Positions 10,485 through 12,203 of a stretch of DNA of 25,801 nt are shown here, one piece after another. Position 1 is the first letter of the stretch. The number at the start of each line of letters is the position of its first letter. Under the pieces are notes generated by a model. That model had not been told where the DNA came from. It did not search any database and saw only the letters and a list, made by a program, of their open reading frames with translations. The position numbers were made by a program, and so were the translations under genes. The stretch is from a virus (Duplodnaviria; Heunggongvirae; Uroviricota; Caudoviricetes): the IMG/VR virus record IMGVR_UViG_2693429554_000019. One strand, written 5' to 3'.

Positions 10485-11210
10485 CTATTGCCTTTTTTTC
10501 AGGTCATCAAGAATGCTCTGCTTTTCGGCAACCAACATTTTGTACACATCATCATCACTTTTAAGATTAAATTTGAAATGCGATCGTCCCACAGATATGC
10601 CGGATACGCCTTCAATCCACATATCCTTGGCTATTTTTTCATCTGAGTCATCTAGGGCATTTTCAGAAATCTTATCAAGGGATGAGAGGATATCCCCATG
10701 CAACTGTAACAATTTTTTATATGTGATTGATGGCGAATTTTCCTTCCTCCGAGAGATCAAGCTTAGATCATTAATCTGGGCGTTAACGCGATCAATAATA
10801 CCAAAAACTCCTAAGCGAGCCTCAACTGACTTGCGCTCAGATTTATGTTTTGCGCCTGTTTGAAATAACAGCTCGGAGTTAATATACGAACCTAGATCAT
10901 GTGCATCTTTCACCATGGTTCTAACACCCTCACTAAAGTGTGGGTATCCGATAACTAGCCCCCCCAGTAGTGGGATGATCTTACCGTAAGCGGTGATTTT
11001 CGCGATGATTGAGCCTTCAGAGAACTCAACTGTTATCTCTACCTCACTTCCAATAAAAAAAGGTATTCGGCTCTTCGCAAAGGCAGTTATTTGCTTCTCA
11101 ATCTCATTGATTCTTAGTTTCTTATCTTGAGGGGTCGCATTTTTTAACCACTCAGGATTAACATGAACATACGATTGAGAAATGATATTCCCTGATACAT
11201 AGTTTGCCAT
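10485..11210 (-). CDS. Hypothetical protein (241 aa), no recognisable motif; second gene of a minus-strand accessory pair
   Basis: Long ORF in AT-rich DNA (about 40% GC in a hand-counted sample). GGAG 5 nt upstream of ATG 11208-11210. Lys/Asp/Glu-rich with a hydrophobic GKIIPLLGGLVIGYP segment. Confidence 0.55.
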   Translation of the reverse strand: MANYVSGNIISQSYVHVNPEWLKNATPQDKKLRINEIEKQITAFAKSRIPFFIGSEVEITVEFSEGSIIAKITAYGKIIPLLGGLVIGYPHFSEGVRTMVKDAHDLGSYINSELLFQTGAKHKSERKSVEARLGVFGIIDRVNAQINDLSLISRRKENSPSITYKKLLQLHGDILSSLDKISENALDDSDEKIAKDMWIEGVSGISVGRSHFKFNLKSDDDVYKMLVAEKQSILDDLKKRQ

Positions 11211-11393
11211 TCTTACTCCATTAACAAGTTACTTTAGCCACCTAGTAATACCCCTAATTTCAGGAGATATCGATATCATTCGCAACGATTGACCTGTTCC
11301 CAGTTGATTGATACACGACATTGTGAGCAAGATCTATGGCAACTCAAGTACGAACGTCTGCTGATCGCTCAGAGCGGACGGCCTTCGTGGAAG

Positions 11394-12203
11394 TTAGTCT
11401 TGTTGTGGTGGCTCTTTCCAGCGCCATTGCAAGACATTCTCATCGCTGAGAATAAACAGTCCTGACCAAATTGCCGTCCAAAACTGGACATTCAGACACC
11501 ATGGGCGTGTCATAAACCAGCGTAACGGTTTTGCTTCAAACAGATGAATACCTTTTCGCGATGGTGAATATAACGGGGGGCGTCCCACTAACGGCAGACA
11601 AAAGCCCCATTTCCAATATTCAGCAATACGCCTTCGGGCAAATTCAATTGCATTACAGTTCCAGATGATACCCCAACGCCGTTTCCATGTATCATTGAGA
11701 CACCAGTTTTGCATTAGCGAATATTTGGGCGAATTGTCAATAGATATACTTTCACCAGTCATTAAATTTATCGTGCAATATTTTAACTGGTACTGTTCAA
11801 CCGTAAATGCGAATCCATCATCTAGAATAAGTACATCAAGTGTAGGAATATTTGAAAGCGTTAATATTATCGGTGAGTTATTTACATCATGAATGCATAG
11901 TGTTTCTTGGTAGCGTAAGCCACTGCCAATGGCTTCAAAAACAAGTTCAACTTGTTGCAGTGGTTCCTCTTTGCTTCTGAAAGCAATACGTGAACAACGA
12001 GGTTCTTTATCTGTCAACTGAGCAAATCGTAGACTGTACTCCAAATAATTCCCTAAGGAATGCCAGCTCGCCCCTAGCCTGTGTCTCACTGCCCAGCGCT
12101 CATGTGAGAGTTGATAAGTTTTTATCAGCATTATCTGGGTAAGAGTAGACCAGCATTTCTTCACTACTGTAACAATTGCACCAAAAGGAACAGGAAGTGA
12201 CAT
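11394..12203 (-). CDS. Hypothetical protein (269 aa), Trp-rich C-terminal half; first gene of a minus-strand accessory pair
   Basis: 810-nt ORF in low-GC DNA with TAGGGG upstream of ATG 12201-12203. Transcribed from the cos side inward, the position and orientation of old/tin in P2. No catalytic motif recognised with confidence. Confidence 0.55.
   Translation of the reverse strand: MSLPVPFGAIVTVVKKCWSTLTQIMLIKTYQLSHERWAVRHRLGASWHSLGNYLEYSLRFAQLTDKEPRCSRIAFRSKEEPLQQVELVFEAIGSGLRYQETLCIHDVNNSPIILTLSNIPTLDVLILDDGFAFTVEQYQLKYCTINLMTGESISIDNSPKYSLMQNWCLNDTWKRRWGIIWNCNAIEFARRRIAEYWKWGFCLPLVGRPPLYSPSRKGIHLFEAKPLRWFMTRPWCLNVQFWTAIWSGLFILSDENVLQWRWKEPPQQD

Follow-up and report, generated by a model that had tools for sequence, protein, structure and literature searches.

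The gpA-gpQ hotspot of P2-like phages was defined by Rousset et al. in 2022, with 1,650 arrangements in 18,150 loci (PMC9122126). The P2 hotspot also carries non-defence cargo, including partition systems, the CDT toxin, and methylases, and only three of the eight further P2 hotspot systems tested in that study gave a phenotype (PMC9122126). Later work described additional P2 hotspots, among which cargo is swapped rapidly (10.1101/2024.10.15.618418). The P2 genes old and tin are adjacent and functionally independent (PMC9122126; 10.1101/2024.10.15.618418). Rst_3HP consists of three hypothetical proteins of the P2 hotspot that are active against P1 and were cloned and tested together (PMC9122126). 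Table S5B of the same survey lists systems #166 and #167 as separate single proteins with 10 occurrences each and with no Pfam domain, signal peptide, or transmembrane segment; both are absent from the systems tested there (PMC9122126).

The locus described here is part of a window of 25,801 nucleotides, the whole stretch of viral DNA that was analysed, recorded as IMG/VR contig UViG_2693429677_000020. Its prophage backbone is 186-like, with Pfam matches to integrase, CI, CII, Dam, gpA, a DinI/Tum-like protein, an IS110 transposase, and the portal protein. The replication protein gene gpA (5083..7497, plus strand) forms the left hotspot border and is followed on its 3' side by the DinI/Tum-like gene (7778-8083), while the portal gene, a gpQ homologue (13128..14156, minus strand), forms the right border. 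A cos-like core, GGCGTGGCGGGGA, lies at 12591..12603 on the plus strand and resembles the 186/P2 cos sequence. The surroundings of this core match the cos-side end of the Rousset clone pFR109.

The cargo comprises three genes. orfC (11394..12203, 269 aa) and orfB (10485..11210, 241 aa) are both listed on the minus strand with ATG starts and are separated by a spacer of 183 nt (11211..11393). orfA (9842..10306, plus strand) encodes 154 aa, or 150 aa in the RefSeq call, which starts from an internal Met. The positions of gpA, the portal gene, and the cos-like core place orfC and orfB in the gpA-portal slot, read from cos inward, in agreement with the original prediction. As in the gpA-gpQ hotspot, cargo lies between gpA and the portal gene with cos adjacent, its content varies, and the same genes occur in other slots and in other mobile genetic elements. 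The cargo region has a GC content of 42%, versus 54-60% in the phage late genes.

The original prediction overlooked orfA and an IS110-family insertion sequence (8172..9695, plus strand; transposase ORF 8380-9657) that adjoins the left cargo edge. Two E. coli chromosomes carry copies of this element at 99.9% identity. The right end of the element overlaps the orfA+orfB homology block by about 12 bp at the left edge of the latter (9684), and the same left edge is seen in an unrelated tail-region context. The overlap raises the question of whether the insertion sequence may target the cassette or may have helped to move it. At the other end of the cargo, the interval from the cos region to the portal gene contains a 97-aa ORF of unknown function (12789-13082, plus strand; phrog_12676), with a strong hairpin (13085-13110) after it. 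The ORF is kept beside the portal gene in many P2-like prophages, annotated as 'hypothetical protein', and gave no match in Pfam, NCBIfam, or PADLOC scans.

The window cargo resembles P2 old/tin (and Z/fun) in its gpA-cos/portal slot, its cos-inward orientation, its AT-richness relative to the backbone, and its nature as non-essential variable cargo, and the functional independence of the adjacent old and tin genes offers a further parallel. Old has ATPase and TOPRIM domains that the window cargo lacks, and old and tin are exclusion genes, whereas the genes of the window are candidates for such a role. Identity with Tin was rejected, as Tin has no sequence similarity to the window cargo. Rst_3HP shares with the window its unannotated proteins, its hotspot, and the type of cos-side flank, but it was tested as one system, whereas the three genes of the window are separable. 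Identity with Rst_3HP was likewise rejected, with BLASTP giving E>=0.6 against Hp1, Hp2, and Hp3 and no HMM match. Systems #166 and #167 have protein sequences identical to those of orfB and orfC, respectively, and stand in the Rousset catalogue without annotation or test. Beyond that catalogue, the present data give the size of each family, statistics on their independence, further hotspots, structure models, and neighbourhoods.

Both orfC and orfB are present as predicted, with plausible ribosome-binding sites (GGAG and AGGGG) 7-11 nt 5' of their ATG codons. They are indeed long for AT-rich DNA: at 42% GC the stop-codon probability is 0.058, which gives the two frames chance probabilities of about 5e-7 and 1e-7 per start. 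The original prediction had proposed longer homologues as a check for pseudogene remnants, and the homologues of both genes are full-length and similar in size. The dN/dS ratio is 0.10 for orfB against its Rahnella homologue and 0.21 for orfC against its Salmonella homologue, ratios that indicate that purifying selection acts on both genes. Full-length homologues and low dN/dS together rule out a chance ORF or truncated remnant for either gene. The rival explanation, that orfB and orfC are decaying remnants or spurious, functionless frames, has a negligible probability. It would fit a RefSeq label that reads only 'hypothetical protein' and a tblastn search in which neither gene matched any of 50,697 deposited phage genomes. 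It is opposed by full-length conservation down to 35-40% identity with invariant motifs, by dN/dS of 0.1-0.2 without internal stops, and by a chance probability near 1e-7 for frames of such length.

The earlier remark that the two proteins have no recognisable domains holds in every collection searched. Scans of orfA, orfB, and orfC gave no match in Pfam or NCBIfam and none at E<=1 in PADLOC-DB v2.0.0. Profile searches of the three families against the PDB returned noise only (designed helical bundles, ubiquitin variants, and a binary-toxin fragment, all at E>0.3). PHROGs matches for the cargo ORFs were to unknown-function families only, and a literature search by RefSeq accession found nothing.

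In the original prediction, orfC and orfB form a unit of two genes, read from cos inward, that is a candidate defence, exclusion, or toxin-immunity pair. The two genes are co-directional and 183 nt apart with no terminator-like site between them, each was found 10 times in the Rousset gpA-gpQ survey, as fits constant togetherness in that slot, and the block that holds all three cargo genes is intact in five complete genomes. However, counts made gene by gene among 5,426 complete E. coli genomes place orfC in 229, orfB in 12, orfA in 12, and the trio in 5. orfC and orfB adjoin each other in 5/229 orfC genomes and 5/12 orfB genomes, always within one 99.8%-identical block of 2.7 kb (9684-12404, aligned directly at that identity in NCTC9100), so every co-occurrence reflects a single evolutionary event. 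orfC is without orfB in about 224 E. coli genomes, and orfB is without orfC in 7 of 12. Megablast of 9700-13200 against the same genomes splits the region into separable blocks, and the arrangement of the window over at least 80% of that interval was found in none of the 5,426. The orfC block occurs alone in a Nissle 1917-type chromosomal island.

Diverged homologues give the same picture. Beyond E. coli, relatives of orfB were examined at 15 genome loci, located by means of a 13-sequence alignment, and at 15 IMG/VR loci, and HMM search found orfC there only in the window-type block. None of the approximately 24 diverged orfB loci (31-70% identity) holds an orfC relative by HMM search, and no orfB relative occurs at the diverged orfC loci, which comprise a 42%-identical IMG/VR relative and relatives from Salmonella, a metagenome, and plasmids. 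The original prediction had named a failure of the genes to co-occur elsewhere as the observation that would speak against a pair, and this is what the genomes show: co-occurrence is confined to one near-identical block, and the diverged loci are unlinked.

The homology blocks defined by direct alignment, orfA+orfB (9684..11379) and orfC (11356..12404), overlap at 11356-11379, which sets their junction inside the orfC-orfB spacer. The 79 nt of spacer next to orfB (11211-11289) are common to all orfA+orfB cassettes. Within 11211..11393 there is no terminator-like site, unusual RNA fold, or Rfam family. A consensus promoter scan found nothing convincing upstream of orfB or orfC (5 sites versus 7.9 expected), so the two genes could be co-transcribed in their present arrangement. 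Protein lengths of 269 and 241 aa and a gap of 183 nt are unlike the typical toxin-antitoxin layout. A defence or toxin-immunity operon of orfC and orfB is thus a very improbable reading, and it is held with high confidence that orfC and orfB are independent modules and not a pair.

A 24-bp stretch, 11356-11379, belongs to the ends of both blocks, orfA+orfB (as in UPEC132) and orfC (as in Nissle 1917), and recombination at this joint may have made the trio.

A second rival explanation makes orfA and orfB the true functional pair, a HEPN-like RNase and its partner in one convergent, mobile cassette of 1.6-1.7 kb. The two genes occur in exactly the same 12 E. coli genomes, and a hairpin separates their convergent 3' ends. 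The cassette is found in several slots: gpA-Q, G-FI, S-V, P4 primase-att, and a Citrobacter island. In UPEC132 it lies without orfC between tail-fibre assembly and tail-sheath genes, the classical Z/fun slot, and in Mangrovibacter and Citrobacter it occurs as 9684-11289. However, all linked copies share at least 95% DNA identity, which points to one recent origin, and with HMMs for the three families orfA was detected solely next to orfB copies of 97% identity or more. No orfA-family gene is present at the approximately 24 diverged orfB loci. Conversely, orfA homologues in Raoultella, Pseudomonas, and Pectobacterium lack orfB; such solitary homologues lie in a P4 int-psu hotspot beside Hachiman, in a Pseudomonas island next to genes for a Type ISP R-M enzyme and an HNH protein, and at a Pectobacterium locus. 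In Citrobacter sp. MGH106, orfA (L007, 8908-9366, minus strand; 89.5% identity) is broken by two in-frame stops, one of which falls just ahead of the RNN motif, whereas its neighbour orfB remains intact (97.5% identity). The families are of unequal size, with more than 625 clusters for orfA and 117 for orfB, and convergent genes cannot form an operon. An orfA+orfB pair is accordingly judged unlikely, and the reading of separate modules is preferred here too.

OrfA carries an invariant motif, R105-N-N-L-F-H110-GGKFN, that is HEPN-like (Rx4H), and R105, N106, N107, L108, F109, and H110 are invariant in 24 diverse members. HEPN-domain abortive-infection and toxin RNases with an Rx4-6H motif were reportedly described by Anantharaman et al. 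in 2013. OrfA resembles them in its invariant R-N-N-L-F-H, its length of about 150 aa, and the occurrence of its family in defence hotspots beside Hachiman and Type ISP R-M. It differs from them in having no Pfam HEPN match above threshold, the best being HEPN_Apea at E=0.15 in 1/24 members, and in having no match of the family to PDB profiles. Comparison with a HEPN-TPR protein by hhalign gave a probability of 4.5%, and one orfA relative is named 'Apea-like HEPN' by UniRef. Between the convergent orfA and orfB stop codons lies a GC-rich inverted repeat (10413..10448) with 15-nt arms and a 6-nt loop, followed by a T-run on the plus strand, which is probably the orfA terminator.

OrfB matches phrog_31894. 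Its close relatives form 10 clusters, and searching 1.84 billion representatives with a profile enlarged the family to 117 clusters, defined at 50% identity and nearly all 220-260 aa long. The family, of about 230 aa and no known domain, is marked by an N-terminal MA(N/D)YI...Q(S/A)Y(V/I)H motif and by EAR-G-x-G, with invariant residues A2, Y4, Y14, G66, S67, E113, E130, R132, G134, and G137. As originally described, the protein is charged (27%) with one hydrophobic segment, a moderately hydrophobic stretch at residues 68-88. The equivalent segment is the most hydrophobic stretch in 39 of the 41 family members checked. The Kyte-Doolittle maximum stays below 1.6, and Phobius reports no transmembrane segment (Rousset Table S5B).

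The AlphaFold2 model of orfB is of moderate quality (pLDDT 66, from an 11-sequence alignment). From the N-terminus it shows a small beta/alpha module, then a hydrophobic stretch that is poorly modelled, and at the C-terminus a bundle of helices; its fold matches are generic only. The protein would be cytoplasmic, and its N-terminal alpha/beta module, with invariant Tyr, Ser, Asp, Glu, and Arg residues, might serve as an enzyme or sensor, with a variable helical bundle attached to it that may form oligomers. PADLOC models run against the 41 relatives gave scattered single-member matches, none of them consistent.

A gene of 106 aa (MHIQHEVFIDAIH...NWGQYS), followed by a terminator, lies approximately 160 nt upstream of orfB at four loci (L037, 5514-5831; L007, 7515-7832; L046, 5531-5848; L047, 5530-5847), and a 27-aa remnant of it is present at L006 (7753-7833). 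It adjoins both 97%-identical orfB copies and 35%-identical homologues and is itself 70% conserved between these. The gene is missing from the window, where orfC occupies its place. It could be an occasional orfB partner or a further module. A search for conserved neighbours around orfB returned only antisense shadows of orfB itself, integrases, hsdR at a few loci, and the 106-aa gene at its four.

The hotspot positions of orfB-family genes were mapped with the phage proteins of the window as probes. At gpA-Q the family occurs in the window and in Rahnella, where it lies beside a validated DprA-PRTase system, and it also occurs at G-FI and, in three distinct phages, at int-att. Of two phages with the family at S-V, one has the 97% cassette and the other a 40% homologue. 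In Mangrovibacter, the cassette lies between a P4-type primase and a second integrase, and in total the family occupies at least four hotspots of P2 and one of P4. Among its distant relatives, some come after type I R-M hsdR genes, and one is near AbiE. The neighbours of distant chromosomal homologues are mostly housekeeping genes.

The S-V slot was seen in two P2-like IMG/VR contigs (L037, L039), between homologues of the window ORFs at 21423-21869 and 21938-22516. Its flanks are tail-completion (S-like) and baseplate (V-like) genes. One phage carries the orfA+orfB cassette there, and the other carries the 40% orfB homologue with approximately 1.4 kb of other cargo.

OrfC belongs to a family of 14 clusters, 269-308 aa long, in which many Trp residues are invariant. 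The Trp-rich C-terminal half noted earlier is borne out: there are 15 Trp in total (5.6%), of which 12 lie in residues 161-269 (11%). The AlphaFold2 model, of moderate quality (pLDDT 65, from an 11-sequence alignment), shows a long N-terminal helix, a central Ig-like beta-sandwich (residues 48-155), and Trp-rich C-terminal helices, and its fold matches are generic only. Segment 234-252 has a Wimley-White octanol dG of -12 kcal/mol and is conserved in the family. The Trp-rich amphipathic C-terminus and this hydrophobic helix lead to the prediction that orfC is membrane-associated. With a Kyte-Doolittle maximum of 1.31, below threshold, and no transmembrane segment by Phobius in Rousset Table S5B, the association is put forward as a hypothesis. 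At the envelope, the Ig-like sandwich could then serve to bind a partner or ligand.

Most E. coli copies of orfC lie in a chromosomal island rather than in a prophage. The Nissle 1917 island (L003, 1-5921) is the usual E. coli home of the gene. It encodes a dynamin-family protein with a weak LeoA match, the candidate defence protein HEC-08 (E=1e-173), an 'ETEC_3214 family' protein, and an integrase that is truncated, and it adjoins a TonB-dependent receptor/ABC uptake operon. The orfC alleles of the window and Nissle 1917 differ by substitutions that are seemingly all non-synonymous (dN 0.006, dS 0.000), in numbers too small to interpret.

Relatives of orfC lie within approximately 5 kb of HEC-08 in Nissle 1917, of the Lamassu genes LmuB and LmuC in a metagenome, and of PDC-S71 and PDC-M04A in a Salmonella ICE, and others are carried on large plasmids. 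A known or candidate defence gene is present within about 5 kb in 5/5 independent orfC-family contexts examined. The PADLOC PDC and HEC candidates were nominated by their embedding in defence islands, the same guilt-by-association evidence that applies to orfC. They differ in that orfB, orfC, and the 41 orfB relatives lack a consistent PADLOC v2 match. Such neighbourhoods are association, not proof. As judged from where their homologues lie, orfB and orfC are independently mobile and recur in hotspots where defence genes are also carried, in P2-like phages, P4-like satellites, ICEs, plasmids, and islands.

One or both genes might instead be non-defence cargo, for example an envelope host-fitness or colonisation factor in the case of orfC and a phage-internal accessory in the case of orfB. 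The concentration of orfC in the island of B2-type strains (Nissle 1917, ATCC 25922, UPEC) beside an uptake locus would suit such a role, as would its Ig-like sandwich and possibly membrane-binding, Trp-rich tail. The mostly housekeeping neighbours of distant orfB homologues and the presence of non-defence cargo in the P2 hotspot point the same way. However, the defence genes near orfC relatives in all five contexts speak for the opposite, as does the occurrence of the orfB family at five phage and satellite hotspots, beside DprA-PRTase and type I R-M. A non-defence role, above all for orfC, is a serious alternative, at somewhat under one chance in three.

The preferred reading remains that of three separate modules, since orfC and orfB differ in distribution and have separate homologues and separate homology blocks. 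Recombination would have brought HEPN-like orfA, orfB, and orfC together in the cos-proximal gpA-portal hotspot. In the lysogen, the sequence upstream of each gene would drive its expression, and each would act alone in putative phage exclusion, of the abortive-infection or superinfection-exclusion type, to the benefit of the prophage. The combined statement that three unrelated single-gene cargo modules with putative stand-alone exclusion roles are stacked in region 9684-12404 is favoured by a modest margin over its negation. The hotspot location and the candidate-exclusion status given to the genes by the original prediction survive; their status as a pair does not, as Rousset et al. list two single-protein systems and the blocks are independent. 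That at least one of orfB and orfC is anti-phage has a little less than an even chance. The strongest version, in which orfB is a new single-gene anti-phage family shuttled by P2-like phages and P4 satellites among at least five hotspots, orfC is an unrelated new membrane-associated exclusion family present in prophages, ICEs, and plasmids, and the window holds three stacked novel single-gene defences, is tentative and rather improbable.

The region is thus a candidate list, not a new two-gene system, and the unit of study shifts from a toxin-antidote pair of 269-aa and 241-aa proteins to three separate genes. It also illustrates how hotspot cargo is shuffled in blocks that can separate, as the modules occur singly, in twos, and in threes. 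Should either gene block phages, the defence catalogue would gain a single-gene family that is new and domain-less, and orfB is the better bet because its relatives at 35-40% identity recur in several independent P2/P4 hotspots.
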